From IMG/VR virus record IMGVR_UViG_3300025132_008118: 64,000 nt of DNA; one strand, written 5' to 3'. The stretch comes from a virus. Each line of letters opens with the position of its first letter. Position 1 is the first letter of the stretch. Made by a program: the position numbers and the translations under genes. Shown piece by piece: positions 11,030 to 64,000 of the stretch. The notes below the pieces were generated by a model that made no database searches, had not been told where the DNA came from, and saw only the letters and a list, made by a program, of their open reading frames with translations.

Positions 11030-11063
11030 TTGATATACCATTTTCTGTCTATATAATTATAGT
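11030..11063 (+). promoter_or_regulatory. Sigma70-type promoter TTGATA-N16-TATAAT-N6-ATG (leaderless) of the dpdA-kinase-queF operon
   Basis: TTGATA 11030-35, TATAAT 11052-57, ATG 11064. Confidence 0.7.
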
Positions 11064-11855
11064 ATGTTAGTATCTCATGAAAGTCCGATTAGTATTTTAG
11101 ATAAATCTAAGTTGTATAATGATTACGATTATGCTCTTGTACATTTATTTGAAACCCAACCCAAGTATTATGACTATTTTAAGAATAGTGTAAAAATAGG
11201 TAGAGAAGTTCTCTTAGATAATAGTATTTTTGAACTTGGTGAATCTTTTGAACCAGGTAAATTTGCTAAATATGTAAAAGAACTTAAACCTTCTTATTAT
11301 ATTGTACCTGATGTTTTAGAAGATGGCTATGCAACTATTAAAAGTTTTCATGAGTTTACTAATAAGTATACCAATCTACCTGGTTTAAAGATAGGAGCAG
11401 TTCAAGGTAAGACATATGATGAAATAGTAGATTGTTATAATTATATGTCAGAAAATGCTGATTATATTGCAATTAGTTTCGACTTTAGCTATTATATTGT
11501 AACCGGTAAAGGTAAATCAAAACTAGAAAGGTGGTGCGATGGTAGACGTAGATTAATAGAACAGTTAAAGAAAGATGGTATTTGGAATAATCAGAAACCT
11601 CATCATCTATTAGGTTGTTCATTTGCTAAAGAGTTTAAAAACTACGTAGGGGATAAAACCATTAGGTCAGTAGATACCTCTAACCCGGTGGTTGCTGGTA
11701 TTAAGGAACTTAGATATACTGGTAATCTAGGATTAAATGAAAAGCCTTCAATTATGTTGGCTGATTTAATTGATCACGAAGTTACAGATACACAGATGGA
11801 AGACATAGAATATAACGTTAACTGTTTTAAAGATATTATTGACCATGGTAATTAG
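11064..11855 (+). CDS. dpdA: DpdA-like TGT-fold 7-deazaguanine transglycosylase/transferase
   Basis: TGT-like motifs LLDNSIFE, YIVPDV, KPHHLLG and VDTSNP; adjacent to queF; DpdA subclass not determinable by eye. Confidence 0.65.
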   Translation: MLVSHESPISILDKSKLYNDYDYALVHLFETQPKYYDYFKNSVKIGREVLLDNSIFELGESFEPGKFAKYVKELKPSYYIVPDVLEDGYATIKSFHEFTNKYTNLPGLKIGAVQGKTYDEIVDCYNYMSENADYIAISFDFSYYIVTGKGKSKLERWCDGRRRLIEQLKKDGIWNNQKPHHLLGCSFAKEFKNYVGDKTIRSVDTSNPVVAGIKELRYTGNLGLNEKPSIMLADLIDHEVTDTQMEDIEYNVNCFKDIIDHGN

Positions 11856-12393
11856 TTTTACGGGAGCTCAAAGTACCGGTAAGTCTACTTTACTTACTAA
11901 ATTGCAAACTGATGAAAGATTTCGTAAGTATAATTTTGTACCGGAAATAACTAGAGGTTTAAAAAAGAAATATAATCTAGATATCAATGAAGATGGTAAT
12001 GAATTTACTCAATTATTAACTGTAAATAGTCACTTATATAATTATTTTGACTTTAAAGGTAAAGATGTGGTATTAGATAGATGTATTTTAGATGGATTGA
12101 TATATACAACATATCAATATCATACAAAAAAAGTAAGTAAAGAAATATATAATTATAGTGAGTATCTCTTTAAGAAATTGATTGGTGAATTGGATATTAT
12201 ACTATATACAGAACCTGATATCCCCTTAGTAGATGATGGAGAGCGTAGCATAGATAAAGAGTTTCGCGATATTATAGTTAACTTATTTGAAGAGGCAATT
12301 AATCATTATAATATTAATGTAATTAGGTTGAGTGGTTCAGTTGATAATCGTATGAAAACAATTTATAATATAGTAGATAATTATGGCAAATAA
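11839..12393 (+). CDS. P-loop nucleotide kinase (NadR/Ttd14 AAA_28-like)
   Basis: ISFTGAQSTGKSTL Walker A, VLDRCILDGLIY, YTEPDIPLVDDGER. Confidence 0.75.
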   Translation: MTMVISFTGAQSTGKSTLLTKLQTDERFRKYNFVPEITRGLKKKYNLDINEDGNEFTQLLTVNSHLYNYFDFKGKDVVLDRCILDGLIYTTYQYHTKKVSKEIYNYSEYLFKKLIGELDIILYTEPDIPLVDDGERSIDKEFRDIIVNLFEEAINHYNINVIRLSGSVDNRMKTIYNIVDNYGK

Positions 12394-13312
12394 AGAATTA
12401 GATAATAGTAGAATTAGTAAGCATTTAGGTCAAACGTCTCAATATAAGAGTGCGTATGATTCTGAGTTGCTTGTAAGAGAACCTCGTAGTAATAATCGAG
12501 TATATTTAAATATATTCGATGATGATTTACCTTTCGTTGGATCTGATACATGGAATGCATATGAATGTTCATTCCTTCTAGATAATGGTCGCCCTGTAAC
12601 AGGCGTTGTGAAGTGTGTATATTCATGCAGTAGTAAATATATCGTTGAAAGTAAGAGTATTAAATTATACTTTAATTCATTTAATATGACTAAAATGGCT
12701 GCTGATAAAGATAAAGCTGTAGTTGCATTCGAAGATACTGCAAGTAAAGATCTAAGTAGATTATTGCAGACTGATGTTCAGGTTAAATTTCAAGATGGTG
12801 ATCGTGTTAATAAGAAATTCGATAGTCCTAATATGGAATGGGATATTGATGATTTTGATAATGTAGATTTACTACAAGATGATAAAGATTTTATATATAC
12901 TCAATATACTGAGGACCCTAGCCTATTAGAAGGTGTTATTCGTGGAAGAGATTTAGAGCAAAAGTTTTATTCAGGTCTATTAAAAAGTAATTGCCGTGTT
13001 ACTTCACAACCAGATTGGGGTGATGTATTTATCTATATTAAATCTAAGACTGCTATTGATGCTCATAGTATTAAGAATTATGTTGTATCATATAGAGATG
13101 AGTGCCATTTTCATGAAGAGATATGTGAATGCTTTTATAAAAGATTAAAAGATGCTTTCGATCCTTCTGAACTATTAGTAATGTGTTTATATGCTCGTAG
13201 AGGTGGTATTGATATTAACCCTGTAAGAGCTTCAAGTAAAGATCTTATCGAAAAGTACGCTGCTAATCTAATTGATCCTGAAGCAGTTCATATTAAAACC
13301 TCTAAGCAATAA
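12383..13312 (+). CDS. queF: NADPH-dependent preQ0 reductase QueF (bimodular, E. coli type)
   Basis: WNAYE, IVESKSIKLYFNSFN, LLKSNCRVTSQPDWG, HFHEEICE, YARRGGIDINP. Confidence 0.93.
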   Translation: MANKELDNSRISKHLGQTSQYKSAYDSELLVREPRSNNRVYLNIFDDDLPFVGSDTWNAYECSFLLDNGRPVTGVVKCVYSCSSKYIVESKSIKLYFNSFNMTKMAADKDKAVVAFEDTASKDLSRLLQTDVQVKFQDGDRVNKKFDSPNMEWDIDDFDNVDLLQDDKDFIYTQYTEDPSLLEGVIRGRDLEQKFYSGLLKSNCRVTSQPDWGDVFIYIKSKTAIDAHSIKNYVVSYRDECHFHEEICECFYKRLKDAFDPSELLVMCLYARRGGIDINPVRASSKDLIEKYAANLIDPEAVHIKTSKQ

Positions 13313-13386
13313 TGGATGTATTTATGACATGGGGTGCAGTGTTATGTATAATATTTTATGCATACTATATAGCATTTTATAATTAA
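13312..13386 (+). CDS. 24-aa hydrophobic micropeptide (not in ORF track)
   Basis: MDVFMTWGAVLCIIFYAYYIAFYN*; ATG overlaps the queF stop (TAATG). Confidence 0.4.
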   Translation: MDVFMTWGAVLCIIFYAYYIAFYN

Positions 13387-13422
13387 ACAAAAAGAGACCT
13401 GGCTCGTAATGAACCAGGTCTC
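13385..13422 (-). terminator. Intrinsic terminator downstream of gp23
   Basis: GAGACCTGG...CCAGGTCTC stem followed by TTTTTGTTT on the minus strand. Confidence 0.8.
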
Positions 13423-13447
13423 AAGCTGTTTGTATCTTATATTAAGA

Positions 13448-23107: not shown

Positions 23108-23590
23108 TTATATGTTCAATTCTTTTTCTGTTAAGATTAAAAACTTACAACCTTTTTTCTTTGACCATTCATTTGCAGCTTTCCATTTAGCTGTATTTTG
23201 GACATACATCTTTTGCTCGTATATGATAGTCTTTTGTTTTTTAAATTTAGTTTTAACTGGTCTTAAAGTCTGTTTACTTGGTTTAATCTCTATTAGAAAC
23301 TTATTTTTATTACCATTCTTATCTTTAAAGACGATATAATTATCAACAAAATATCTATGAACTTTACCATCTAAAGGATTTAAATAAGGTATTATAATAT
23401 TTTCACTACCCCAAGCTAATATATTTTCATTTAAATCTGCCCATCTAAAAAATTTTAACTCCCAGCCAGAACGATATGTAGGGTTACCTTTACCTATATA
23501 TTTTTGTGAATTAATAGGTTTAAAAATGCCTTGACGAAATTTTTTATTCTTTTTAATAAATATAGTTATGACATTTGAAGAGAAAATCAT
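23108..23590 (-). CDS. gp4: Head completion nuclease, gp4-like (TnsA-like fold); start uncertain
   Basis: KYIGKGNPTYRSGWELKFFRWAD, HRYFVD, IEIKP, NTAKWKAA. Confidence 0.88.
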   Translation of the reverse strand: MIFSSNVITIFIKKNKKFRQGIFKPINSQKYIGKGNPTYRSGWELKFFRWADLNENILAWGSENIIIPYLNPLDGKVHRYFVDNYIVFKDKNGNKNKFLIEIKPSKQTLRPVKTKFKKQKTIIYEQKMYVQNTAKWKAANEWSKKKGCKFLILTEKELNI

Positions 23591-24086
23591 TAAGAATAGT
23601 GAAATAAGACAAAAAAATTTAATGCGACCAGCTAAAATTGCATTTGAAAAACCAGATACTGGTGTGACTATTAATAAAAAGGGTGCATATTTTTTAATTA
23701 AAGACTCTGCTGATATAACTGTGAAATATTTACCATTATTATCGTATGGTAGTTTTAAGAATCCCATTATAGATTTAAAAGGTAAATTTACTCAATCAGA
23801 AATTATTGATTTCGTGGGTAGAGCAAAAGAAGAAAGTTATACTAATCAATTATTAAGTGTAATTTTAACTGATATTGGTTGTACTCAACCTATAACTCAA
23901 ATCGTAGATGATAATAAATCTGAAGAATTGGATTTATCTTTTAGTGATGACGAAGATGTTTACGGTGATTATGAAACCGAAGAAGAGGTTACTATTAAAA
24001 ACTCTTCATCCACCACCCAAGCAATAGATGTCGAAGATGCCAGTATAGTTATTCAAAAGCTTATAGAAGTTTTTAACGCTAAATAA
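23568..24086 (+). CDS. Hypothetical late protein
   Basis: 172-aa ORF with TAAATA-N5-ATG. Confidence 0.7.
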   Translation: MTFEEKIIKNSEIRQKNLMRPAKIAFEKPDTGVTINKKGAYFLIKDSADITVKYLPLLSYGSFKNPIIDLKGKFTQSEIIDFVGRAKEESYTNQLLSVILTDIGCTQPITQIVDDNKSEELDLSFSDDEDVYGDYETEEEVTIKNSSSTTQAIDVEDASIVIQKLIEVFNAK

Positions 24087-28905: not shown

Positions 28906-28939
28906 ATACTAATTATAACATATGAACTTAAGAAATCAA
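28906..28939 (-). promoter_or_regulatory. Sigma70-type promoter TTGATT-N16-TATAAT-N6-GTG of the PRTase
   Basis: On the plus strand: attata 28912-17, aatcaa 28934-39. Confidence 0.6.
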
Positions 28940-43023: not shown

Positions 43024-43030
43024 ATTATTA

Positions 43031-43315
43031 TTATAGCTTATTTGGTTTAGATTTCAAGCGCATTTCAAATAATTCATCGGCTCTTTTGTAACCTTTTTTG
43101 ATAGCTTCTTCAGCTGTATCAATATCTGAAAATATTTCAGAGGAACTCATATACAATGTAAACTTTTTAGGGTCTCGATTATTCTTTTTATCCATTTCAG
43201 TCGACTGCAATCGAATAGTCATATAGAACGTCTTGTAATCTAGACACTTCCATACTTCATATTCCCCTTGCTTGATAAACTTTTTTCTTTTTGGATCTTG
43301 ACTTAACTTTGCCAC
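43031..43315 (-). CDS. Hypothetical early protein (GTG start)
   Basis: 94 aa; GGAAC promoter. Confidence 0.7.
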   Translation of the reverse strand: MAKLSQDPKRKKFIKQGEYEVWKCLDYKTFYMTIRLQSTEMDKKNNRDPKKFTLYMSSSEIFSDIDTAEEAIKKGYKRADELFEMRLKSKPNKL

Positions 43316-44908: not shown

Positions 44909-44970
44909 TTTTTATTACACTTTATTGTTACTTTTCATAAAACTTATACTATTATTTTATCACTGTTCCT

Positions 44971-45207
44971 TTAAATTTCAAGGAGTATTTCCTTAGAATA
45001 TAATTCAGTTATGAATTTATTTATATCTTTTGCAGAATAGTATATATTATTATAGCAAAAATCTACTAATTCATGTTCTAAATCCGGAAACATTTCTTTA
45101 TGTTTATCTTTTATTTCATCTAAAAGCTCTTGAAAAATCTTTTCTTGCTTTTCTTGCAAGAGAATTATATGATACCTTGCATCTATTAGATTTTCTTCAG
45201 TTAGCAT
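44971..45207 (-). CDS. Hypothetical early protein
   Basis: 78 aa; GGAAC promoter. Confidence 0.65.
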   Translation of the reverse strand: MLTEENLIDARYHIILLQEKQEKIFQELLDEIKDKHKEMFPDLEHELVDFCYNNIYYSAKDINKFITELYSKEILLEI

Positions 45208-46441: not shown

Positions 46442-46466
46442 TATAAAATTTAATAAATAATACTAT

Positions 46467-47738: not shown

Positions 47739-47750
47739 GCTATTATTATA

Positions 47751-47927: not shown

Positions 47928-47930
47928 TCT

Positions 47931-48347: not shown

Positions 48348-48379
48348 ATATTATTATATCACAGTTCCTAAATAATTAT

Positions 48380-51600: not shown

Positions 51601-53439
51601 GGTCAGAATAATACATCTAGTGCCAATAGAACGACGGTAGCAGGCGGCGCCGGGGTTGAGGCAACTGCTAATTGTGCAACAGCAGCTGGTGGTCAAATTA
51701 ATATAGCATCTGGTGTTCATTCATTCATTGGAGGTGGTTGTAAAAATACAGCTAGCAATCAGTGTTCAACAGTTGCTGGTGGTCGTTGTAATACAGCTAG
51801 TGGTAATCGCTCATTCGTAGGTGGAGGAGAAGAAAATATAGCTAGTGGTAGTATGTCAAATGTTGGTGGAGGTTGTTTTAATCAAGCTAATGCTAATAGT
51901 GCTACTGTGGCCGGGGGTTTTCTTAATATAGCTGCTAGCGTTCATTCAACTATTGCTGGAGGTTTTAGTAGCTGTGCAACCGGTAATAATACATTTATAG
52001 GTGGAGGTCGTACTAATGTAGCATCCGGTTCAGGAGCAGTTATTGGTGGGGGTTGTAGTAACGTAGCATCCGGTTCAGGAACATTTATAGGAGGTGGTCA
52101 TAATAATACAGCATCTGGTAATTATTCATCAGTAGATGGTGGTAATAATAATACAGCATCTGGTGATAGCTCATTTGTAGGCGGAGGTCTCGGTAATGTC
52201 GCTTCAGGTAGTAAATCATTTATTGGTGGTGGGGGCGATGTTTACAATGGCTTGTTTTATGCTAATACAGCTTCAGGTGGTAAATCATTTATTGGTAATG
52301 GTGGTCAATACGGCGGTGGTACTGGTGTACAAATAGCGACCAATCATTATTCATTTATTGGTAACGGTACTGGTAATGCAGCATCTGGTGTAAAATCGAC
52401 TGTTTTAAACGGTGGTTGTAATGGAGCATCTAATACATATGCGACTGTTTTAAACGGTGTATATAATGCAGCAACGGCTGGTGGCGCAGCTGTTGTAAAC
52501 GGTACTTGTAATGTAGCTAAAGGTTTAAATAGTACAATAATAAATGGAACTTATAATACTATATGCGGAGTAGCGGGTAATGGTAGAGATAATTTTATCG
52601 GTGGAGGTTTTAGGCATTGCATTCTTAACCTTGGTGTTCGTTCAGGTATTGTTAATGGTGCATGTAACATAGTTAATAGTTCATGTAGTTTTATAGGTGG
52701 TGGTTATAAGAATTACACATCTGGTTTACAATCATCAGTGGTCGGTGGAGAATGCAATAAAGCTAACGGTAGCCGTTCAACCGTAGGTGGAGGAGAAGAT
52801 AATATAGCTAGTAATACTACTTCAACAATAGCTGGTGGGTTTAGTGGTAGAGCTATTGGTAGACAAACATTTATAGGAGGTGGTTATACTAATGTAGCAT
52901 CTGGTTCAGCAACTAGTGTTGTTGGAGGTTGTCAAAATCGTTCGTGTGCAGATAATTCATTCATTGGTGGTGGTTTAACCAACAGTGTTTTCGCATCAGC
53001 AGGGGCTATTGTCGGAGGTGCTCGAAATTGTATCCCAACAGGTACCGTGGCCGCGACATTTATTGGTGGTGGTGAAAATAATTATAATTGTGGCACCAAT
53101 TCAGCAATAGTTGGTGGTAGAACAAATCAAATAGTTCATCATTGTGGCTTTATTGGTGGTGGTAGGAATAATCTCGTGTATTCGCAGGGATCAGCTGTTG
53201 TAGGAGGCTGCAGCAATCGTTCATGCGGTAGTTACAGTACAATTATAGGTGGTAGGGGCAATGAAGTCTACCGTGGCCATACAAATTCGTTTATTGGTGG
53301 TACGGGTATTTTGTCAGTTTCATCAAATATGTTCCATACAAATAGCTTATTTTTAAGTGCTGGAGCATTACCTACAAGTGACCCAGGCGTAGTAGGTGTT
53401 GTTTGGAGAGATGGTACTGACCTTAAGATCAGTGTTTAA
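48631..53439 (+). CDS. 1602-aa tail fibre/adhesin with shaft repeats and many 15-aa GGG-x2-N-x-A-S-G repeats
   Basis: NRVGINTSNP/GNLGIG shaft motifs; SFIGGGxxNxASG repeats; C-terminal LPTSDPGVVGVVWRDG. Confidence 0.85.
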   Translation: MAICKVPISDLPISDSLDGSEIVPVVEGVFTKQTALSELSGFVNLQYVTDSNNTTTTGLSTSGLITGNNIVSINNITTTSLSSTDIKNNANIETFTLSSTHAAISGSLITDSLSSNSIDNVGNIKTSTLSSDNINNLNDITTNHLRTSTLCADDITIGNNITTESISSTNIENKGFIVTDSLSATVITAVSSHTTYIDIKQYELSGFDVTGSISVSGDITASQSLKSFGLNVDEGSLFVDPYNNRVGINTSNPISGLDINSGGLRVKGGAFLSSGRVDISDDLAVDADTLFVDSVNDRVGINTSNPISGLDVNNGLKVDGGVFLSSGRVDISDDLAVDADTLFVDSVNDRVGINKSGPSEALDVDGNIKIPADKFYRMAGDAFQIGTDGGHQGMHFHAGGSEKVTLLSGGNLGIAVTDPDQKLEVDGNIKISAERYLQFAGDAYQIGVDGIPKRIQFHTDGQEVVSILSGGNLGIGTIDPNKTLTVVGDISATEHLFSKGVCGNQIGSIHNTNVLLSDDLILQTGTALPSNRLIIKPSGEVGIGVTPTNGVSLATTSFSAQSLSANKIIGGVFNKATAGDSGVLAGNFNVASGCGSAVLGGSLNVASYTGAAVVAGTGNQASNGIGSAILGGQFNVANFVSVVVGGTTNTASGLRSIVGAGRCNQAEGTDSSVVGGFSGGAIGTNSFIGGGEINVASGTDSSVVGGLSSIASGTNSFIGGGNGNVASGIESTIAGGISISACGKQSFVGGGRCNTAGGYRSTVGGGDFNTAIANRTTVAGGAGNTACANCATVGGGQINIASGVHSFIGGGCANIASGTHSTVAGGEDNTASGNRSFVGGGEDNIASGINSTIAGGCCSIASGTFSFIGAGFKNEAIGHSTAIGTGFCNIASGDYSTIAGGFSSRASGNKSFIGGGCCNVSSGSAAFVGSGYFNNASGHYSSVVGGLSSIASGNNSFIGGGCHNKATGTYSFIGAGESNRATGYQSFVGGGQNNTSSANRTTVAGGAGVEATANCATAAGGQINIASGVHSFIGGGCKNTASNQCSTVAGGRCNTASGNRSFVGGGEENIASGSMSNVGGGCFNQANANSATVAGGFLNIAASVHSTIAGGFSSCATGNNTFIGGGRTNVASGSGAVIGGGCSNVASGSGTFIGGGHNNTASGNYSSVDGGNNNTASGDSSFVGGGLGNVASGSKSFIGGGGDVYNGLFYANTASGGKSFIGNGGQYGGGTGVQIATNHYSFIGNGTGNAASGVKSTVLNGGCNGASNTYATVLNGVYNAATAGGAAVVNGTCNVAKGLNSTIINGTYNTICGVAGNGRDNFIGGGFRHCILNLGVRSGIVNGACNIVNSSCSFIGGGYKNYTSGLQSSVVGGECNKANGSRSTVGGGEDNIASNTTSTIAGGFSGRAIGRQTFIGGGYTNVASGSATSVVGGCQNRSCADNSFIGGGLTNSVFASAGAIVGGARNCIPTGTVAATFIGGGENNYNCGTNSAIVGGRTNQIVHHCGFIGGGRNNLVYSQGSAVVGGCSNRSCGSYSTIIGGRGNEVYRGHTNSFIGGTGILSVSSNMFHTNSLFLSAGALPTSDPGVVGVVWRDGTDLKISV
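49361..49665 (+). repeat. In-frame tandem duplication (period 156-159 nt)
   Basis: 49432-49509 nearly identical to 49588-49665; 49361-49404 repeated at 49520-49563. Confidence 0.85.
50951..51850 (+). repeat. Internal duplication with 675-nt period (15 x 45-nt units)
   Basis: Matching blocks at 50951/51626, 51031/51706 and 51121/51796. Confidence 0.8.
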
Positions 53440-54260
53440 TCGATATAAGCGAAAGCCTTTTGATACCATCCATATTCAGTATCAATTCTATTACAAGATT
53501 CTTCTCCTATTATTTCTTTATAATTATCTACTAAAGGTTCTACCTTATTTCTAATAGTATGTAGATCATTATCTAAAGCATGTATAACATCATTTTCTTT
53601 AGTTGTTTGTTCAATATTATTAAAGTTATGATTGTATCTTTCTAAATTTAAAATATCATAAACTTCATCCATTATTTGTTGAGGCTGTGATGTTAAATCT
53701 TCAGCACGTATAAACATTATTTTATTTTCTAGACCTAATTCATAAATCTCTTGAATTCTATCTAAACTAATACTAACTGGTATATTATTTAGATACATAT
53801 CAACTCTCTTATATACTGTTGTGCCTCTAGCTTCATGGTTTACTAACCATTGAGATGTTTTATCTGGATTCTTTCTATGTAATTTTTCAAAAGATGCTAC
53901 TATACTTTTTAAGTTTCTTACCATACAGAAAATTTTAGGTTGTTCACCTAGAAAGTTTTCCATCCAAGGTATATTACCTTTCCAACCTCTACCCTTTAAT
54001 ATAATATTTGGTTTATTAGTTAGAGTATTGCAATAGGCTTGCATACCACCTTTACAAAAGTTACGCCATGATTGTAAATATGTATCTTGATCTATAGCTG
54101 CTTTAAATTCAACACCATCTGTAAATCGTTGTCTTGCTCCATCTAATAATTCTATAAGACCATCAGTTGCAGTAGCGTGAAAGTTAGGGTTTTGAGCAAA
54201 TATATTTTGTAATAATGTACTACAAGCTCTGGGCATCGAGGAATTAAAAATTATATTCAT
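53436..54260 (-). CDS. Sulfotransferase family protein
   Basis: PAPS-binding SMPRACSTLL, MVRNLKSIVASFEKL, IRAEDLTSQP. Confidence 0.85.
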   Translation of the reverse strand: MNIIFNSSMPRACSTLLQNIFAQNPNFHATATDGLIELLDGARQRFTDGVEFKAAIDQDTYLQSWRNFCKGGMQAYCNTLTNKPNIILKGRGWKGNIPWMENFLGEQPKIFCMVRNLKSIVASFEKLHRKNPDKTSQWLVNHEARGTTVYKRVDMYLNNIPVSISLDRIQEIYELGLENKIMFIRAEDLTSQPQQIMDEVYDILNLERYNHNFNNIEQTTKENDVIHALDNDLHTIRNKVEPLVDNYKEIIGEESCNRIDTEYGWYQKAFAYID

Positions 54261-55198
54261 TTTACTATACTATCGTAAACTGCTTGTAAGTCGAAAATAT
54301 CAAAATTATCATACGGAAACTCATGTTCAGGGCCATTAAAATCATGATCAAAAAACAAACTATCAATCATACTACCACCGCATGGTTTTATTTTTTCTTT
54401 ATTTGGTAATATATTTTTATGCATTTGATATCCAAAAACATCTGGACTGGTACCAATCCAGCACACTGTCGAATGTAATTTAAATGCAGCAGCTGCATGC
54501 TGTAAACAGCTATCAATTAATAATCTTTTTTCTGATTTAAGTAGTAATGATAAAAACGTACGTTTACTTGCAATTGCATCGACCCTTTCTGCATTATTTA
54601 AAGATGGTCCATTTTTTCTTGTAACGTGATATATCTTATATTTTTTTGATAGTTCATTAACTAAAATTTGCGATTGTGACACTGGTAAATCTCTAGTCCA
54701 ACAATACGATCGACCATCTTCATAATTACCCCCATTCGTTTGCATAACTAATATTGGTTTATCGCTTTGAATATTATGCGCATAATATGTCTGTTCAGCA
54801 ATATTAAAATAAAGTTCAGGTTGTATATTTCCGTCAAAAGGCAGATCGTGAAGTTCACACCACGACTTAATTAAATGTTGCTTACTATATAAGTGATCTG
54901 TACAAAAATATGGTTCACCTTTTAAAACTATACTTTCTCTTCCTTCAAGATAATCTCTATAAAAGTAAGGGGTATTGCCTGATTGTAAAACTCTATGAAC
55001 TCTTGGATTATTTAAGAAAATTTCTGCCCATGGTGTTAGTACAATTATTTTATGGTCAGGATATTTAGCTTGAATACATCTAACTACTGCAGTAGATGCA
55101 ATTATTTTACCTAAACCACCTTCCGGATTAAAGATTATATAATTATCTTTTTTTGACATATAATTAGTTATTAGTATGGATTTGATATTCCATATCAA
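54257..55198 (-). CDS. GT-B glycosyltransferase (GT9/heptosyltransferase-like)
   Basis: EGGLGKIIASTAV...YPDHKIIV, LIDSCLQHAAAA...TVCW. Confidence 0.7.
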   Translation of the reverse strand: MIWNIKSILITNYMSKKDNYIIFNPEGGLGKIIASTAVVRCIQAKYPDHKIIVLTPWAEIFLNNPRVHRVLQSGNTPYFYRDYLEGRESIVLKGEPYFCTDHLYSKQHLIKSWCELHDLPFDGNIQPELYFNIAEQTYYAHNIQSDKPILVMQTNGGNYEDGRSYCWTRDLPVSQSQILVNELSKKYKIYHVTRKNGPSLNNAERVDAIASKRTFLSLLLKSEKRLLIDSCLQHAAAAFKLHSTVCWIGTSPDVFGYQMHKNILPNKEKIKPCGGSMIDSLFFDHDFNGPEHEFPYDNFDIFDLQAVYDSIVK

Positions 55199-56144
55199 CT
55201 AAAGAAGTAATATTATTAACACCTGCATAGCTCATACAGCTTTGTATCCCTTGATTAATTCTATTAAAGTATTGTATATATGTTTCATTTCTCATATCCA
55301 TATACACTGTTTGACCTTCTACATAACCATCATGACCTTTATTAGTTGACGATGCGCTACCGTAAAACACTTTTTTATCAACATTACCCATTGCAGGTCC
55401 TCCAATAATATCAGCAGGGCTATCTTCACACTTTGCAAATTCACTGCCTATCATAACCATATTAGCTCCCGCTACTAGTGCTTTACATACATCCCCTACT
55501 TCTCTTATTTGACCATCAGCTATAATAGGTATGGTAGTTTCCCAGCTAAAGAATTTAGCATTTGCTATGCTTTCAACTGCAGAGAACATAGGGGTACCAA
55601 CCCCAGTACAGTTATACGTAGTACAGCTCTTACCCATCGACAAACCGACTTTAACAGCATCAGCTCCCCACTCATATAAATCAGTTGCTGCGTCATAAGT
55701 ACCTACATTACCTGCTATAATTTTTACGTTTAACCTATCCTTTATATAAGTAATCATATTTTTTACCAAAACATGATGACCATGAGCAACATCAATAGTA
55801 ATAAAATCTACACTTACATCTTTTTCTACAATATTGTCAATAAAATTTCGATCCTTTTCATTTACCCCGACGGATATTGAAATAGTTTTCATATCTTCGT
55901 TTTCAATTATCCAATCTAAAATATCCCCGTAATCATAAAATCTATGCAGTACGTAAAAATAACCAGCTTCACTTAACTCTCTAGCTTTTTTAAAATCAAT
56001 AGTGCATTTCATATTAGCTGGTATAGCAGCGCTTTCAAATCTTTTACCTAAAAACTTTACTGATGCATCTAAAGATGATCTTGATTTAATTTCAGAGTAT
56101 GCAGGTTGCAATACTATATCTTTATAACTATAGAATGTATTCAT
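55164..56144 (-). CDS. guaC: GMP reductase
   Basis: IDVAHGH, IIAGNVGT, GADAVKVG..GKSCTT, PIIADG, KALVAGA. Confidence 0.88.
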   Translation of the reverse strand: MNTFYSYKDIVLQPAYSEIKSRSSLDASVKFLGKRFESAAIPANMKCTIDFKKARELSEAGYFYVLHRFYDYGDILDWIIENEDMKTISISVGVNEKDRNFIDNIVEKDVSVDFITIDVAHGHHVLVKNMITYIKDRLNVKIIAGNVGTYDAATDLYEWGADAVKVGLSMGKSCTTYNCTGVGTPMFSAVESIANAKFFSWETTIPIIADGQIREVGDVCKALVAGANMVMIGSEFAKCEDSPADIIGGPAMGNVDKKVFYGSASSTNKGHDGYVEGQTVYMDMRNETYIQYFNRINQGIQSCMSYAGVNNITSLVDMEYQIHTNN

Positions 56145-56341
56145 TATTTATTTCCTTTCATAAATGCTATTAAGCAATCGTATGGGCTAAACCCAACGTT
56201 TTGTAATTTAATATACTGGTCACAAAAATCATCTTGCATATGTTTTTTCTCAATATCTCTTAAAACGGTATCAACTGTACCTTGTTGCTTTTTATCTACT
56301 TCCACACGTAATTGCTCTCGTATAGCATTATACTTACTCAT
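56144..56341 (-). CDS. Hypothetical protein, first gene of the guaC operon
   Basis: 65 aa; start 1-nt coupled to guaC. Confidence 0.65.
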   Translation of the reverse strand: MSKYNAIREQLRVEVDKKQQGTVDTVLRDIEKKHMQDDFCDQYIKLQNVGFSPYDCLIAFMKGNK

Positions 56342-56375
56342 ATATATATTATAGCTTATGCTATTAAGATTTCAA
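56342..56375 (-). promoter_or_regulatory. Sigma70-type promoter TTGAAA-N16-TATAAT-N6-ATG
   Basis: On the plus strand: attata 56348-53, tttcaa 56370-75. Confidence 0.65.
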
Positions 56376-56581: not shown

Positions 56582-56841
56582 AAAAATATTATAATCATTA
56601 ATAAACTACAAATGGCTCCGAATACATAATTTGTAATTAAAATTAAATTAAAACCTATATCAGATAATGTATAAATTATTGCAGATATATAGCCTAATAA
56701 AGATAAAATGAAAAGTGAAACACTAATATCATTAACCTTTTTCGTTTTAAGGCTTTTAACTATCTGCGGTATATAACAAATAGCAAAACATAAAGTATAA
56801 AACCAACCGACTACTACCATTTCAATACTTAATAGCTCCAA
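56563..56841 (-). CDS. PQ-loop/SemiSWEET-type small transporter
   Basis: CYIPQIVKSLKTKKVNDIS; three TM helices. Confidence 0.8.
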   Translation of the reverse strand: MELLSIEMVVVGWFYTLCFAICYIPQIVKSLKTKKVNDISVSLFILSLLGYISAIIYTLSDIGFNLILITNYVFGAICSLLMIIIFLCYKTK

Positions 56842-57269
56842 AAATATTCAATTTCTTTACCGGTCCTTTTAAACTTATCCTTATAGTATTGATTATCTTT
56901 CTTAATAAGATTACTTCGATGTGATAAATGTACTCTTGCATCTTTTATAAATTTGGGATATACAACTGGTTTAGATTTATCAAAATGAGCTTCTATTTTT
57001 TCAGTACATGTATCTTTATACCCTCTACGTTTCCACTCTTTACAAATTGATAGACCATAAAGACATAATGCATTAGAATAATCACCTTTATCATTATACC
57101 ACATCTTTCTAGCTGGGTGATTCTTCCAACCTTTAACTGGTTCTTTATTCTTAAGCTTTTTAATACTGTTAAGTAATTGTAGTACTTCTACTCGCTGCTT
57201 ACCAAGCCTTCTATAATCTAAAGCCTTAGCTGATTCTTTAAATGACCCATAAGGTAAAAACGTCTGCAT
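56829..57269 (-). CDS. Pyrimidine-dimer DNA glycosylase-like protein (MSMEG_6728 family)
   Basis: MQTFLPY...LDYRRLGKQRVE...HPARKMW...EWKRRGY...HLSHRSNL. Confidence 0.85.
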   Translation of the reverse strand: MQTFLPYGSFKESAKALDYRRLGKQRVEVLQLLNSIKKLKNKEPVKGWKNHPARKMWYNDKGDYSNALCLYGLSICKEWKRRGYKDTCTEKIEAHFDKSKPVVYPKFIKDARVHLSHRSNLIKKDNQYYKDKFKRTGKEIEYFWSY

Positions 57270-57358
57270 TCATATATTATATGAAAGTTCCTTTATAATG
57301 CCCACCATCCGTCCCCTGTTTAGTTTTATAGTTATGCTCCGACCTTTAACTATTTATA

Positions 57359-58180: not shown

Positions 58181-58924
58181 TTAAAAACTAAATGCTAAAC
58201 CAGCTGTAACTGATACATCAAAATCACCATCGGTACCTTCTGATGAAAGATCATTTACAATACCTAGATTATTCTTAAGAGCATTAACTTGAACAAAAAC
58301 TGGTAAGTCATTTGCTAAAGTATCAAATCTTACATAACCGTGTGTGTACTCAAGTTCATCATCGAGTCCAAATGATTGACCGTATTCAGCCCCTACAGTA
58401 ACGTCTACTGCATCACCTACTACAAAAGTCTTTGATACAACAAATGCAGGGGTAACAATCTTGCTATCATATTCTGAACCAACTTCACTACCATCTTCTA
58501 CAGCAACTGTAATAGATGTATCGAGCGATTCAAACCAGTTTAGGTCATAAGCACCATTCAATTCGAATGTAGTATCAGCACCTTCAATAGTATGCATTAC
58601 TACACGCGTATCGACACCACCAATAAACGTATTAAGATACGTTCCAAGTGAATAGTGCAGCTGATAGTCATCTGAATGAACGTACTCTAAACCTCCGACA
58701 AAAGAAAGACCAGCAAAGTCTCCTGCTTTAGTCGATGCTTTAAAGTAGCCCACATCCTGCGCCCCGTAAAGGCCGCCTGAAATGCGCTTTTCATAGTAAC
58801 CTGTGGTGACATCTACCTTCCAGGTCTTTTCTTGTTCTACTTCTTGAGCTTCTGCTTTACCGCACAATGCAAGATATGCAATGACAGCTACAGCAGCGCC
58901 AATAATAATATATTTCTTTTTCAT
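58181..58924 (-). CDS. Outer-membrane beta-barrel (porin-like) protein with signal peptide
   Basis: MKKKYIIIGAAVAVIAYLALCGKAEA signal; amphipathic strands; C-terminal GLAFSF. Confidence 0.75.
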   Translation of the reverse strand: MKKKYIIIGAAVAVIAYLALCGKAEAQEVEQEKTWKVDVTTGYYEKRISGGLYGAQDVGYFKASTKAGDFAGLSFVGGLEYVHSDDYQLHYSLGTYLNTFIGGVDTRVVMHTIEGADTTFELNGAYDLNWFESLDTSITVAVEDGSEVGSEYDSKIVTPAFVVSKTFVVGDAVDVTVGAEYGQSFGLDDELEYTHGYVRFDTLANDLPVFVQVNALKNNLGIVNDLSSEGTDGDFDVSVTAGLAFSF

Positions 58925-58960
58925 AGCCTTCTATTATAGACTATGTTTATTGTGAATCAA
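58925..58960 (-). promoter_or_regulatory. Sigma70-type promoter TTGATT-N16-TATAAT-N8-ATG
   Basis: On the plus strand: attata 58933-38, aatcaa 58955-60. Confidence 0.55.
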
Positions 58961-59182: not shown

Positions 59183-60262
59183 TTAAAGATCAAAATCATC
59201 AAATGCTTCTTCATCTATTTCTGTATCTCTTGCACCGATTTTATAAGAACTAATTTCAGTTTCTTGAGGAGCTACTTGCACTTTAGAACTATCTGAGTAA
59301 CCATTTAACCACCCACCAATTGGATTAGTTGTTTGATCAAAGATTTTATCGTAACCTAAAGAACGTAATCTTGTATTAGCTAACCATTCGATATAACCGT
59401 TTAACATTTCTGCATTAAGGCCTAATAAAGAACCATTCGAGAAGAGATATTCAGCCCACTTCTTTTCATTCTCTACTGCTAATCCATACATGTCGTATAT
59501 CTTCTGCTCATTATCTTTTACTACTTGCTGGAATCCTTCATCTTTATTTTCTCTCCAATACTTGATAATATTTTGCGTAATAGCAGCATGTAGGTTTTCA
59601 TCTCTTGCAATTAAACCTATAATTTTAGCATTACCTTCCATCTTACCTTTATAACCAAAGAAGTAAGAACAAGCAAATGATACATAGAAAGCTAAACCTT
59701 CTGTAATCTGAGTAGATAGTACCGCATTAAAGATCTTTTGCTTTATATCATCTTTATCGTCTCCGAGTAATGTGTTATATGCTCCGCTAATTTCAGTAGC
59801 TCTTCTAGTTATTTCTTTATCTTCTAATATAGAGTCAAAAAATGCAGTAGCATCTTTAGCAATATTTTGTAATGTATATGTATATGAATAACTATGAATA
59901 GTTTCAAATCTTGCCCAGCTAGTCATGCATATTTCTAACTCGGGGTTTGATACATAATTTTTAATATTATGAATACTTCTAGAAAGCATACTATCAGTCA
60001 TAGTTTGCCATCTTAAATTACTATTAAAAATAAATCTTTCAGTATCAGTTAAGTTTTCATAATCATTACGATCTTTAGTTAACGACACTTCTTCAGGTAA
60101 CCAATGAAACTCTTCTTGCTTTCTCCATAGATCGAAAAACTTAGGGTATTTAAACCTATCATATCTTTGAAGAGCTAAATCCTCTCCAAGAAACATAGGC
60201 TGTTTCGTAGTATCAACATTTTTAACATTCAGTACAGTATCCATAAATTTATTATCCATCAT
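59183..60262 (-). CDS. nrdB: Ribonucleotide reductase class Ia beta subunit
   Basis: FHWLPEEVSL, ETIHSYSY, TEGLAFYVSF, IARDENLH, VAPQETEISSY. Confidence 0.96.
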   Translation of the reverse strand: MMDNKFMDTVLNVKNVDTTKQPMFLGEDLALQRYDRFKYPKFFDLWRKQEEFHWLPEEVSLTKDRNDYENLTDTERFIFNSNLRWQTMTDSMLSRSIHNIKNYVSNPELEICMTSWARFETIHSYSYTYTLQNIAKDATAFFDSILEDKEITRRATEISGAYNTLLGDDKDDIKQKIFNAVLSTQITEGLAFYVSFACSYFFGYKGKMEGNAKIIGLIARDENLHAAITQNIIKYWRENKDEGFQQVVKDNEQKIYDMYGLAVENEKKWAEYLFSNGSLLGLNAEMLNGYIEWLANTRLRSLGYDKIFDQTTNPIGGWLNGYSDSSKVQVAPQETEISSYKIGARDTEIDEEAFDDFDL

Positions 60263-60482
60263 TTCCTATTGCTTCAACTGGGCAACCTTCCATTGCCTCT
60301 ACACATAATTCTAATTCTACATCATTTTCAGGCTGCTTATATACATATGAATAACCACCATCTTCTTCTCTGGTAAAATTATCCGGAGCAGTTTCCCTAC
60401 ATAGGTCACAATCAATGCATTGTTCGTCGACATAGAAAGCTCCTTCTACGTTTTCTGCCCATTTTTCTTCTTTATCTGCCAT
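60252..60482 (-). CDS. Ferredoxin (4Fe-4S/3Fe-4S type)
   Basis: CIDCDLC...CPVEAI; start revised to MADKEE. Confidence 0.9.
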   Translation of the reverse strand: MADKEEKWAENVEGAFYVDEQCIDCDLCRETAPDNFTREEDGGYSYVYKQPENDVELELCVEAMEGCPVEAIGNDG

Positions 60483-60493
60483 CGTTAATATAT

Positions 60494-62761
60494 TTAGAGT
60501 GCGCAAGCTCCTGATTCACATCCATCTTCAATATTATCTTTCTGTTCCTCTTCATTGAAGCTCTGCTTATCCCCATCATCAGTATTGTTATAGTAACCTG
60601 TTCTCCAGCCTAATTTATATGCTAATAGTATTTCTTTAATAACCTTTGAATCAGGTAATGCTCCGTTATCATAATGAGCATAATTATAATACATATTAGC
60701 ACTGATACTCATATCGATCCATTTCTGTAAAGCGCCTACAATTTTAATCAAACCAGTATTATCTTCCATATCATATGCAAGAGTATACTTATTTTTATAT
60801 GATGTATAGTTTGGTACAATAACAGGTAACGTACGAGCTTTAGATTTCTTATAGGTAATATAAGATCTAATAGGTTCTATACCATTTGTAGAGCACTGAA
60901 TTACCGAAGAGCTCTCGCAGGGCATTATAGCTGATACTGTGCTATGTCTTAGTCCAAACTCTTTTATCCTTGCTCGTAAGCCTTCCCAATCCATACTATT
61001 TTTTCTTGTAACAAATTCATCAATTTCTTTCTTATAGTTATCGATTGGTAACCAACCTTGGCTATACTTTGTCTTATTAAATTTAGGACATCTACCCTTT
61101 TCACTTGATAGGTTACAGGATGAACTTAATAGATAATACTGAACCTTTTCCATCAACTCATCAGCCACATTAGGGGCTTCATCATCTGTATATTTTACAC
61201 CTTGCTTTGCAAGATATGCAGCAAAGTTAGTAATACCAATACCTAATGATCTACGATTTTTGGTAAAGTTTTCAGCAGCAGGTAAAAAGTAATCTTGGTA
61301 ATCAATTAACTGATCTAAAATACGTACAATAATATCGCATACCTTTTCCATTTCTGCATCTGATTGAATCTCTAATACATTAATAGCAGATAAAATACAA
61401 ATACCAATTTCTGCATTCTTATCATCTGGATGCTGTAGAGGCTTAGTAGGATGCAATACTTCAACACACAAGTTAGTCATCTTAATATCATCATCCCAAG
61501 CTGATCTCTGATTGCAATGATCGATATTCATAAAGTATATACGACCGGTCTCAACTCTTTCTTTAATAAACAACGACATTAACTTTCTTGCTTTAACAGT
61601 CTTCTTAAACTTAAGACTCGTCTTACGTTCATATTGCTCATATAACTCATCAAAATTTTCATGACCAAAAGCATCATACAATTCTTTAGCTTCGCAAGGC
61701 GAAAAAAGAGTTATGTCTTCATTCTTTAAAAATCTTTTATAAAATAACTCACTAAATTGAATACAATAATCTAACTTACGTACTCGATTATCGTCCGTAC
61801 CAGAATTATTTTTTAGTACTAACATATCTTCTGCTTCATAATGCCAGAAAGGAAAGTTAACAGTAGCAGACCCTCCACGAATACCATTCTGATGGCATGA
61901 CTTAACTGTCGATTCCATTAACTTAAGAAAAGGTATTACCCCTGTATGAACAACTTCACCATTACGAATAGGGGAGTTAAGAGGACGTATACGTCCCATA
62001 TTTAAACCAATACCATAACGAGATCCTGTAGCATACCCAGCAGCTGTAGATGAGGAGAAGATAGAAGGTAAGGTATCATCTACATCAATTAAACAACAAG
62101 ATGCATATTGTCTTACTTTACTACGTACACCGGCCATTAAAGGGGTCGGTAAATTAATCTTAAACTTGGAAAAATAATCATAAGCTTTCTTCACATAAGA
62201 AATACGAGCTGGTCCTTCATATTGACCAAAACATACCATAGCAATAATCATATATGCAAACTGAGGTGTTTCATAAATCTTAGTTTCAGATCTATCTTGA
62301 ATAAGATACTTATCACATAACTGACGCATACCAGCATACGTAAAATTATTATCTCTTGAATGATCTACATACTCGTCAAGTTTATTTATTTCTGTATCAG
62401 TATACAACATTAAAATATCTTCATCATAAACATCATATTCATGAACGTTTTTATTAATAAAATCTACTAACTTAGGAGGGTTCTTACCACCCCAAACATC
62501 TTTACGTAATTGGTAGGAAAGTAATCTTGACGCGACATACTGATAATTGGGTGATTGTAATGATATTAAATTAACAGCAGAATCAATTAACACGTTATGA
62601 ATTTCACGTGTTGTTATACCTTCTTTCATCTGAAGCTTGGCATTTATTTCAATATCAGAAGCTGTTACACCTTTAATGTCATTAACTGCCCAACCTACAA
62701 CGCGATGTATTCTATCGACGTCAAACGGTACCATTTCGCCAGTTCTCTTTACTATATTCAT
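60494..62761 (-). CDS. nrdA: Ribonucleotide reductase class Ia alpha subunit with ATP cone
   Basis: IVKRTG ATP cone, PTPLMAG, ASCCL, TNLCVEV, NRRSLGIG, MPCESSS. Confidence 0.97.
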   Translation of the reverse strand: MNIVKRTGEMVPFDVDRIHRVVGWAVNDIKGVTASDIEINAKLQMKEGITTREIHNVLIDSAVNLISLQSPNYQYVASRLLSYQLRKDVWGGKNPPKLVDFINKNVHEYDVYDEDILMLYTDTEINKLDEYVDHSRDNNFTYAGMRQLCDKYLIQDRSETKIYETPQFAYMIIAMVCFGQYEGPARISYVKKAYDYFSKFKINLPTPLMAGVRSKVRQYASCCLIDVDDTLPSIFSSSTAAGYATGSRYGIGLNMGRIRPLNSPIRNGEVVHTGVIPFLKLMESTVKSCHQNGIRGGSATVNFPFWHYEAEDMLVLKNNSGTDDNRVRKLDYCIQFSELFYKRFLKNEDITLFSPCEAKELYDAFGHENFDELYEQYERKTSLKFKKTVKARKLMSLFIKERVETGRIYFMNIDHCNQRSAWDDDIKMTNLCVEVLHPTKPLQHPDDKNAEIGICILSAINVLEIQSDAEMEKVCDIIVRILDQLIDYQDYFLPAAENFTKNRRSLGIGITNFAAYLAKQGVKYTDDEAPNVADELMEKVQYYLLSSSCNLSSEKGRCPKFNKTKYSQGWLPIDNYKKEIDEFVTRKNSMDWEGLRARIKEFGLRHSTVSAIMPCESSSVIQCSTNGIEPIRSYITYKKSKARTLPVIVPNYTSYKNKYTLAYDMEDNTGLIKIVGALQKWIDMSISANMYYNYAHYDNGALPDSKVIKEILLAYKLGWRTGYYNNTDDGDKQSFNEEEQKDNIEDGCESGACAL

Positions 62762-62778
62762 ATTCATTATTTAAATTA

Positions 62779-63288
62779 TTATGTTATTATCAACGCTATA
62801 ATAGAACCAAATTTTTGAAAGTCAAACTTACTTTCATCTATATCAAGCATATGTTGTAATATTTTTTTATCTTTTGATACTTTATCGTCTGTTAGATGTC
62901 TAAATTTTTTAAAATCTATAGGATATATACCGCTCTTAAAGTAAGCATAACAATCATTACATGTAAGGTTAAATTCACTTAAAAGATTTTGATAGACCAC
63001 TAAATTAATATCGTATGATTTTTCTTGATCACTTATTGTTTTAATAATACTATCGCCTACATCATTCGGCTTTAAACAAATTCCGTATAATGGTAACATA
63101 TTACTTTTACTTTCAGTTTTATATAACCGGAAGAACTTTTTAGGGTTATACTTTTCGTTTATTTTTAACCGTTTATTGTCGTATTCATTTTTTATAATGA
63201 ACCCTAAAAATATTGACGGTTCTAAAGGAGTTTTATATGAAAACTCTTCTCCCTCTACCGGGGACTCTACTAAAGATACATCTATCAT
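62779..63288 (-). CDS. Hypothetical protein
   Basis: 169-aa ORF. Confidence 0.65.
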   Translation of the reverse strand: MIDVSLVESPVEGEEFSYKTPLEPSIFLGFIIKNEYDNKRLKINEKYNPKKFFRLYKTESKSNMLPLYGICLKPNDVGDSIIKTISDQEKSYDINLVVYQNLLSEFNLTCNDCYAYFKSGIYPIDFKKFRHLTDDKVSKDKKILQHMLDIDESKFDFQKFGSIIALIIT

Positions 63289-63512
63289 TATAGATTTATT
63301 TCTCTTTTTAAAGTAGCACCTTTAAGACTATATACTCTGATCTTATCTTTACCACCGTTATTAGGGTGAATAGTAACAGTAGCGGTATCACCGGTTACCA
63401 CGGGTCCACTATAAGTACAAGAACCTGGTAGTTCAGCTGTATGTTGTATTGAACCGTTTTCAGCATTGAAAATGATTAATTTACTTCCTTCTATTCTTGG
63501 TACTAAATTCAT
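63288..63512 (-). CDS. Hypothetical protein
   Basis: 74 aa; coupled ORFs. Confidence 0.65.
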   Translation of the reverse strand: MNLVPRIEGSKLIIFNAENGSIQHTAELPGSCTYSGPVVTGDTATVTIHPNNGGKDKIRVYSLKGATLKREINL

Positions 63513-63871
63513 ACTTTAATTATATATTTATTTATAAAAGATTCAACTTCGGGATCGGATTTATTATAAGTAAATGAAGATAAATTTTCATTTATTGTTG
63601 GTATCTTTAAACTGCTAGTTTTAAATCTTTCTTCGAGTTGTTCAATAATAGATTGATCAGGGATTTCAATATCATCAGATACATTTAATATATTTCTAAT
63701 TTCTATTACACCATAACCTCTTTTAAAAAGAGTTTTTACATCTCTACTTATGTAGAGTTTTTGCAATGTTTCTACATCTTTATACTCTTCTATTTTCTTT
63801 CTCAAATAGTCACCAGAAAATAAACTTTCTTTATTTGTAACTATACACTTAACCTTTAAGGATTTAACCAT
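63509..63871 (-). CDS. Hypothetical protein
   Basis: 120 aa; promoter TTGAAA-N16-TATAAT-N5-ATG at 63872-63904. Confidence 0.7.
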   Translation of the reverse strand: MVKSLKVKCIVTNKESLFSGDYLRKKIEEYKDVETLQKLYISRDVKTLFKRGYGVIEIRNILNVSDDIEIPDQSIIEQLEERFKTSSLKIPTINENLSSFTYNKSDPEVESFINKYIIKV

Positions 63872-63893
63872 ATCTTATTATAAATATAATTAT

Positions 63894-64000
63894 ATGAATT
63901 TCAATGGTATAGTCAAAGATATATTAGAAGATTTTAAAGCCCCGGTAGATACTAAAAGACCGACCAAAAGATCTAAAGGTAAATATGGTACTGTTAACCC
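63894..64000 (+). CDS. 5' end of a late CDS truncated by the window edge
   Basis: TAAATA-N7-ATG (63881); open frame to the end of the window. Confidence 0.5.
   Translation, partial: MNFNGIVKDILEDFKAPVDTKRPTKRSKGKYGTVN

Follow-up and report, generated by a model that had tools for sequence, protein, structure and literature searches.

A probable pre-late promoter class abutting start codons in a T4-like phage lineage that carries DpdA3

We analysed a 64,000-nt stretch of viral DNA (IMG/VR record IMGVR_UViG_3300025132_008118, the whole of which we call the window) for a promoter-like motif, TTGAWW-N16-TATAAT, here termed class C. Seven exact copies are present, each lying a few nucleotides before a start codon, and we consider it likely that they belong to a sigma-70-type promoter class that abuts start codons and serves DNA metabolism ahead of late transcription in a T4-like phage carrying DpdA3, a protein related to the tRNA-guanine transglycosylases (TGT) by its predicted fold. 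A first-pass annotation of the same DNA had proposed five of these sites as a third promoter class joining scattered purine and deazaguanine genes into one regulon. The sites do behave as one class tying such genes together, though among relatives it is exchanged with a second, GGAAC-containing type.

Spacing, geometry and conservation of the class C motif

Seven exact matches occur where 0.48 are expected, and none of 100 shuffles of the window reached that number. They start at 11030 on the plus strand and at 28939, 43057, 56375, 58960, 63546 and 63904 on the minus strand (Table 1). Those at 43057 and 63546 are new; the other five, put forward earlier as promoters with identical 16-nt spacing and free of both GGAAC and TAAATA, proved exact in position and in spacing, and neither GGAAC nor TAAATA is present in any of them. 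When spacers of 13-21 nt were scanned, each length except 16 nt gave zero or one match, and enrichment at this length alone means that the fixed spacing is real. A loose sigma-70 scan, which is uninformative in AT-rich DNA, was not enriched in the window (96 found against 99 expected; G+C content about 32%), the strict pattern alone being so.

All seven sites are co-oriented with an open reading frame (ORF) of 65-263 amino acids (aa), and the gap between TATAAT and the start codon is 5, 6 (five cases) or 8 nt. The codon is ATG or, for a phosphoribosyltransferase gene, GTG. In sigma-70 geometry such a gap makes the first nucleotide of that codon the expected point of transcription initiation, so that promoters abutting their start codons in this way imply leaderless mRNAs, with transcription probably beginning at the start codon or 1-2 nt from it. 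Because AGGAG-like sequences are found upstream of some genes that do not head units, the leaderless state appears to be limited to the first gene of each unit. A simple column count over 23 aligned class C sites gave the two hexamers as the invariant positions, and nothing more.

The window is, judging from its genes, part of an uncultured, deep-branching marine T4-like myovirus. It encodes a major capsid protein of T4 gp23 type that reaches only about 33% identity to that of any isolate, its NrdA is about 54% identical to those of cyanomyoviruses and Pelagibacter phage Mosig, and further structural genes encode a gp20 portal, gp15, gp25, a gp5-like hub, a prohead protease and a scaffold. No near-identical DNA was found among the 50,697 phage records of an isolate phage collection. 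We relied for comparison on 65 related viral-contig loci fetched from IMG/VR, graded in DpdA3-type protein identity from 97% to 48%, which appear to be marine from their sample series and record numbers. Two large relatives were of particular use: G001 (185 kb, 88% complete), with about 80-90% nucleotide identity to the window where aligned, and G002 (221 kb, 100% complete).

All seven sites recur before orthologous genes in G001, six with a 16-nt and one with a 17-nt spacer, the spacer sequences themselves having diverged. The site before DpdA3 (TTGA, TATAAT, 16-nt spacing and 6-nt gap) is kept in about 45 loci, the least similar of which have about 63% protein identity, again with a diverged spacer. 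More distant loci show the motif ahead of the gene for the phosphoribosyltransferase (L041, L042), the kinase (L043) or QueF (L045). Exact matches number 19 genome-wide in both G001 and G002, compared to one each for a control pattern, and none was found in two genomes of the most distant branch. The hexamers and their spacing are thus conserved while the spacer sequence drifts, and class C is a real, lineage-specific promoter type. That the matches are a product of chance in AT-rich DNA, as the flat result of the loose scan might suggest, has next to no probability, being refuted by the enrichment, the single spacer length, the co-orientation, the fixed distance to the start codon and the conservation.

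Genes behind the promoters and their probable timing

No replication genes lie within the window, so the gene content of the class was annotated in the whole of G001. There the exact 16-nt form heads the phosphoribosyltransferase gene, the DpdA3-kinase-QueF operon, the gene for a 247-aa protein and the nrd operon, and also genes for an NAD-dependent epimerase, an exonuclease, FolE2, gp32, a primase and a dUTPase. It further heads an operon for the gp55 late sigma factor (phrog_234, E 7e-29), gp47, gp46, a glycosyltransferase and DNA polymerase; a unit of UvsX followed by QueC; and an operon for an amidotransferase, a GNAT protein, a MazZ-like diphosphohydrolase, a glycosyltransferase, gp41 helicase and a DHH protein. 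Versions with a 17-nt spacer or one mismatch head QueE, QueD, DUF366 and the operon of guaC, a GMP-reductase-like gene (17 nt for the guaC operon and QueE; 16 nt with CATAAT for QueD). A similar picture emerges independently from G002, where the motif stands before genes for dUTPase, gp32, UvsX, DNA polymerase, gp55, FolE2 and a second AAA_28 protein. Small ORFs are also among the class C-headed genes of both genomes.

Some details of these units are recorded here for their own sake. The G001 amidotransferase operon (L103:4950-7084) places its glutamine amidotransferase, GNAT, MazZ-like dATP/dGTP diphosphohydrolase (PF18909) and glycosyltransferase genes directly upstream of that for gp41 helicase, with UvsX-QueC nearby. 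The second AAA_28 kinase-like protein of G002 (L097:1535-2353) is longer (272 aa) and has its own class C promoter. DUF366 (PF04017) lies directly behind TTGA...TATAAT in both G001 (L100:1544-2131) and the relative G003 (L068:1535-2116); in G001 it adjoins the NAD-dependent epimerase gene and may belong to the modification pathway.

The position of gp55 bears on timing. This factor is required for T4-type late promoters, and the late TAAATA class, with its motif mostly 5-6 nt before the ATG, heads structural genes in the window. Since the gene for gp55 is itself behind class C, class C would act before late transcription. We suggest that its members are -35/-10 promoters of the sigma-70 type, read by the host RNA polymerase, and that they form a pre-late class for DNA metabolism which would drive replication, recombination, nucleotide-supply and deazaguanine genes together with the late sigma factor. 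If so, co-regulation of the purine and deazaguanine genes would follow from their membership in a general pre-replicative programme, with no regulon of their own.

The dedicated regulon of the first-pass annotation, which would make modified G nucleotides while depleting dGTP, finds support in the four of seven window units that carry purine, deazaguanine or ribonucleotide reductase genes, and in the fact that every deazaguanine gene found in G001 sits in a TTGA...TATAAT unit. The gene content nevertheless largely refutes it, as the same motif in G001 and G002 precedes core replisome and recombination genes, dUTPase, gp55 and unrelated small ORFs. In the simple column count over the 23 aligned sites nothing conserved was seen beyond the two hexamers that could mark a dedicated set, and promoter types are swapped among orthologues, with DpdA3, DNA polymerase and guaC carrying GGAAC-type or -10-only promoters in relatives. 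We consider such a regulon very improbable.

The GGAAC type is itself abundant. GGAAC-N5-TATAAT is found at 29 sites compared to 0.1 expected, located at 29700-48400 and 57276-57291, most of them with TGn immediately before TATAAT (an extended -10), and 26 of the 29 are exactly 6 nt before an ATG. The array of ORFs behind these sites, about 27 in number and mostly small (median 82 aa), has no family match; denV (56829-57269) and a gene for a DnaB/KaiC-like ATPase (46833-47738) stand behind such sites too.

Several points weigh against class C as a separate pre-late class of sigma-70 type. Recognition by host sigma-70, the transcription start and the timing are all deduced from sequence, and the sigma-70 consensus of the host may differ from the general one. 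The replication genes assigned to the class are those of relatives, whose nucleotide identity is about 80-90% and lower, rather than of the window's own genome, and in G003 a baseplate-like gene lies behind one class C site. Class C and the GGAAC type are also not cleanly separate: GGAAC has a fixed position within the would-be 16-nt spacer, and hybrid promoters with both TTGA and GGAAC exist, one in the window (44981) and several in G001. DpdA3 is preceded by a GGAAC-type or hybrid promoter in L039, L041 and L045, and the G001 DNA polymerase gene has a GGAAC promoter of its own. From the hybrids and the swaps among orthologues it follows that the two types are interchangeable over evolutionary time; they may or may not differ in timing.

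Class C might then be no temporal class at all, the two types being alternative means of recruiting a single holoenzyme to a common -10 element and firing together, through a -35 contact in class C and through the extended -10 plus GGAAC in the other. The shared TATAAT with its 6-nt gap to the start codon (26 of 29 GGAAC sites, five of seven class C sites), the fit of GGAAC inside the spacer of hybrid promoters and the switching of orthologues between the types all speak for this. So does the failure to detect AsiA or MotA families (PF09010, PF09114) in G001-G003, though this negative is weak, as control genomes gave no match either. The contents of the two types are strongly different, however, with small ORFs of no family behind GGAAC and recognisable DNA-metabolism genes (median 229 aa in G001) behind class C, and we think it rather unlikely that both fire as one.

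On the reading that we prefer, a separate pre-late class, the "third class" of promoters would be the phage's ordinary pre-replicative programme, readable from sequence in an uncultured lineage. Three classes could then be mapped on the genome (GGAAC with extended -10, -35/-10, and late TAAATA), the leading gene of every unit being probably leaderless, and from such a map any uncharacterised gene of these phages could be assigned a time of expression.

Table 1. Class C sites, related promoters and genes discussed in the text (window coordinates).
Feature	Coordinates	Strand	Remarks
Late promoter, TAAATA-N5-ATG	11023-11028	-	back to back with class C site 11030; serves gene starting 11017
Class C promoter, TTGATA-N16-TATAAT	11030..11057	+	6 nt before ATG of DpdA3-type gene
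DpdA3-type TGT-fold protein, 263 aa	11064..11855	+	assigned from homology and predicted fold
P-loop kinase, AAA_28	11839..12393	+	resembles NadR ribosylnicotinamide-kinase domain, thymidylate kinases and deoxynucleoside kinases
Bimodular QueF, preQ0 reductase	12383..13312	+	Pfam QueF_N + QueF; TIGR03138, 238 bits
6-oxopurine-type phosphoribosyltransferase, 154 aa	28441..28905	-	Pfam Pribosyltran; loop binding phosphoribosyl pyrophosphate (PRPP)
Class C promoter	28912..28939	-	6 nt before GTG of phosphoribosyltransferase; same geometry in G001, L041, L042
Class C promoter, newly added	43030..43057	-	6 nt before 66-aa ORF (42823-43023)
Hybrid promoter	44954..44981	-	TTGAAA, GGAAC inside 16-nt spacer, TAAAAT; orthologous hybrid in G001 at 177784
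313-aa virus-only protein, then 274-aa sulfotransferase	53436..55198	-	downstream part of guaC operon
GMP-reductase-like protein (guaC)	55164..56144	-	IMPDH/GMPR family, no CBS domain; Pfam IMPDH 1e-50
Class C promoter	56348..56375	-	6 nt before 65-aa ORF (56144-56341) heading guaC operon
Class C promoter	58933..58960	-	8 nt before gene for 247-aa protein (58181-58924)
nrdA (757 aa), 4Fe-4S ferredoxin (84 aa), nrdB (359 aa)	59183..62767	-	
Class C promoter, newly added	63519..63546	-	6 nt before 74-aa ORF; TAAATA inside spacer
Class C promoter	63877..63904	-	5 nt before 120-aa ORF (63509-63871)

The names first given to the genes behind these sites mostly held. QueF and the P-loop kinase were confirmed, as were the phosphoribosyltransferase, the sulfotransferase, the GMP-reductase-like protein and NrdA/NrdB, and the dpdA gene is of the DpdA3 type; a ferredoxin was confirmed as well. 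Two names were not confirmed. The "porin" is the 247-aa protein, which has a signal peptide and a C-terminal ...AFSF and matches no family; it may be an outer-membrane beta-barrel, and the signal peptide and terminus suggest a Gram-negative-type host. The "GT" is the 313-aa protein, likewise without a family match and a possible glycosyltransferase by one weak lead.

The site at 11030 and the late promoter share a divergent control region of 46 bp (11018-11063), a back-to-back arrangement kept in relatives, and the true start of the minus-strand gene beside DpdA3 is probably 11017 rather than 11041. Behind 43057, the 66-aa ORF is followed by small ORFs and tRNA genes, and the site is kept in G001 at 182668. 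The guaC operon runs from its 65-aa ORF through the GMP-reductase-like gene to those for the 313-aa protein and the sulfotransferase; its promoter has a 17-nt spacer in the G001 orthologue and a -10 element only in that of G002. The unusual 8-nt gap before the 247-aa gene is retained in L025/G001. At the end of the window a second match, TTGACT-N16-TATAAT with its start at 63916, overlaps the 63904 site, and the 74-aa ORF behind 63546 is followed without gaps by a 169-aa ORF, nrdA, the ferredoxin gene (60252-60506, inserted between nrdA and nrdB) and nrdB. A weak look-alike, TTGATA-N16-AATAAT, stands at 62793 immediately before nrdA, and the nrd genes are probably read from it together with the 63904 and 63546 promoters.

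Two further features stand apart from these units. A protein with a TnsA-like endonuclease domain is encoded within the structural module (23108-23767) and is probably part of a mobile or homing element, and a 1602-aa plus-strand ORF (48631-53439) shows higher G+C and strong positive GC skew within a region otherwise on the minus strand.

DpdA3, its kinase and a phosphoribosyltransferase

One by-product of the analysis is of more value and also the most promising lead: in several unrelated phage lineages DpdA3 and deazaguanine-synthesis genes are accompanied by a purine-type phosphoribosyltransferase and a specific kinase. The predicted co-occurrence was borne out for these two enzymes, while guaC turned out to be confined to the marine lineage.

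DpdA3 of the window is 51% identical to the DpdA of Flavobacterium phage immuto, 48% to CP220 gp056 and 27% to that of phiST. It gave no Pfam match, Pfam TGT included, and a profile search against PDB sequences reached only E 0.17, so that a fold search was needed to show the relationship to TGT. An AlphaFold2 model built with 18 homologues (pLDDT 91.5) found tRNA-guanine transglycosylases as its best Foldseek matches (E about 3e-9, probability 1.0, TMq 0.62-0.68), which points to a TGT TIM-barrel fold. The invariant Asp-containing motifs are retained. The zinc-binding C-terminal subdomain of TGT was not found in the protein, which has 263 rather than about 370 aa, no conserved Cys cluster and C124 as its only invariant Cys. 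Published tests of DpdA3 in E. coli were unsuccessful (PMC10516641). The 363-aa divergent gene upstream of DpdA3, considered as a relative of the CP220 HD/P-loop protein gp055, is unrelated to it.

The order DpdA3-kinase-QueF is kept in every one of the 65 loci that reaches far enough. The kinase, which may act on a nucleoside or a nucleoside monophosphate, is 37% identical to the product of the gene adjoining DpdA3 in CP220 and 34% to that in immuto, and it adjoins DpdA3 in all lineages examined save the phiST group. Phages of the CP220 type have two places that match the kinase.

In NCBIfam the phosphoribosyltransferase matches the xanthine enzyme, below the curated cut-off, and in PDB it matches Sulfolobus GpT-2 and E. 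coli XGPRT. Only 25 of the 50,697 phage records contain a homologue, and 22 of these 25 carry deazaguanine-synthesis genes. With the marine lineage included, the association is seen in six separate lineages. Campylobacter Firehammervirus-type phages such as CP220 have the homologue together with DpdA3 and contain ADG-modified DNA (PMC10516641), and DpdA3 is likewise present in the phiST group. Phage immuto has a divergent copy between QueE and FolE. Brevundimonas phage MaInes has the order ribonucleotide reductase, deoxynucleoside monophosphate kinase, FolE, phosphoribosyltransferase, with a weak DpdA3-like match elsewhere in the genome. In Synechococcus phage BUCT-ZZ01 (L112:6090-8870) the order is QueE, phosphoribosyltransferase, a hypothetical gene, QueD and FolE; no TGT or DpdA3-like gene was detected there by either profile. 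The phosphoribosyltransferase is therefore adjacent to FolE, QueD or QueE in immuto, BUCT-ZZ01 and MaInes, and in the same genome in CP220, phiST and G001.

Other nucleotide genes of this phage are less telling. The best NCBIfam match of guaC is the GMP reductase PRK05458, at 268 bits against a cut-off of 344, and the gene is present in the window, G001 and G002. As a DpdA3 partner outside this lineage it was rejected, since it is not in CP220, phiST or immuto and the other phage matches are unrelated jumbo and Gram-positive phages. Ribonucleotide reductase is near-universal in T4-like phages and so uninformative for a pathway. The MazZ-family diphosphohydrolase lies behind a class C promoter in both G001 and G002. 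It was set aside as a marker of DpdA3 phages: the family is widespread in phages without known G replacement, its 413 phage matches being mostly actinophages with none from Campylobacter, Cellulophaga or Flavobacterium among the matches listed. No PurA/PurZ homologue (PF00709) was found in G001-G005, with a positive control that worked. Of the route first envisaged, in which phosphoribosyltransferase, kinase, ribonucleotide reductase and GMP reductase act in concert, comparison thus supports the phosphoribosyltransferase and the kinase, and neither guaC nor ribonucleotide reductase.

Hutinet et al. 2019 mention a proposal of modified dGTP for Campylobacter phages (PMC6884629). Hutinet et al. 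2023 named DpdA3, reported complete replacement and argued for post-replicative insertion by all DpdA families (PMC10516641). The words "phosphoribosyl" and "kinase" do not occur in PMC6884629 or in PMC10516641, and no nucleotide-level route with these genes was found in the literature searched.

We tentatively raise the possibility that the complete replacement of G in DpdA3 phages is made at least partly before replication, at the level of nucleotides. A phosphoribosyltransferase resembling TubE or ToyH would join a 7-deazaguanine base to PRPP, and the kinase beside DpdA3, ribonucleotide reductase and a host nucleoside diphosphate kinase would convert this product stepwise into the deoxy-triphosphate. 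For the GMP-reductase-like enzyme of this lineage the substrate would be the deaza-GMP analogue, the role proposed for TubD and ToyE, or else it would lower the GMP pool, and DpdA3 would work on nucleotides or only patch residual G, with all genes fired from the promoter class that also serves the replisome.

An equally good rival, on which we place a similarly guarded probability, is that the phosphoribosyltransferase and kinase recycle the guanine released by post-replicative exchange through DpdA3, by way of guanine, GMP, GTP, FolE2 and preQ0. This agrees with the TGT fold and retained Asp motifs of DpdA3, with the insertion after replication proposed for all DpdA families, with the xanthine/guanine type of the phosphoribosyltransferase and with the established role of GTP as precursor of the deazaguanine pathway. 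It fits less well with the complete replacement, with the retention of the kinase beside DpdA3 outside the phiST group, and with the homologue of BUCT-ZZ01, which lies among deazaguanine genes in a genome without detected DpdA; TubE, moreover, demonstrates that a purine-type phosphoribosyltransferase can take 7-carboxy-7-deazaguanine (PMC6112128). If the nucleotide route were true, it would revive the modified-dGTP idea, as cited in PMC6884629, against the post-replicative model of PMC10516641. The association makes the question of replacement before or after replication testable with four enzymes.

Comparison with known systems

Compared to the published DpdA3 phages (PMC10516641), the window encodes a DpdA3 homologue (48-51% identical), with an adjacent kinase as in CP220 and immuto, with QueF following as in immuto, and with a phosphoribosyltransferase homologue as in all three. 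It differs in coming from a deep-branching marine T4-like lineage with its distant capsid protein, in having a GMP-reductase-like gene and FolE2 instead of FolE, and, in relatives, in the MazZ-like dATP/dGTP diphosphohydrolase.

The closest parallel to the nucleotide route is found in the tubercidin and toyocamycin gene sets (PMC6112128; also bioRxiv 10.64898/2026.04.15.718813). In Streptomyces, TubE of tubercidin synthesis joins 7-carboxy-7-deazaguanine to PRPP, and the GMP-reductase homologue TubD/ToyE is proposed to reduce a deaza-GMP analogue, TubD having been assayed in vitro only with GMP (PMC6112128). The same combination of GTP cyclohydrolase, QueD, QueE, (QueC), purine-type phosphoribosyltransferase and GMP-reductase-family enzyme is seen in the phage, a likeness of gene combination. 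Unlike these pathways, that of the phage includes QueF and a DpdA3 with the TGT fold and presumably yields DNA rather than a free nucleoside, and, unlike the toyocamycin branch, no PurA/PurB homologues were found in its relatives.

Among phages in which base replacement is pre-replicative, T4 (dCTPase, dCMP hydroxymethylase, gp1 kinase) and the Z-genome phages (MazZ, PurZ, DatZ) similarly place a nucleotide-modifying enzyme beside a dedicated kinase. As in the Z-genome phages, a MazZ-family diphosphohydrolase is present in G001 and G002, and all of these genes would, as read from the promoters, be expressed with the replisome. Unlike in T4 and the Z-genome systems, action on nucleotides is here no more than a prediction, and, unlike the Z-genome set, the MazZ-like family is absent from the CP220, phiST and immuto matches.

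As for the promoters themselves, the sigma-70 promoters of T4-like phages (T4 early; cyanomyovirus early and middle) have the same TTGA-type -35, TATAAT and 16-nt spacer as class C, head replication, recombination and nucleotide-metabolism genes as well as gene 55, and coexist with a T4-like late TAAATA class before structural genes. Unlike T4, the lineage has an abundant GGAAC plus extended -10 class in place of the early array of small genes, and no MotA box, MotA or AsiA homologue was found (control genomes gave no protein match either). Unlike the T4-like sigma-70 promoters, class C is strictly spaced at 16 nt and abuts the start codon, with no leader or Shine-Dalgarno sequence expected on the first gene. 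This leaderless placement would be its unusual trait; otherwise class C matches the T4 prereplicative set.

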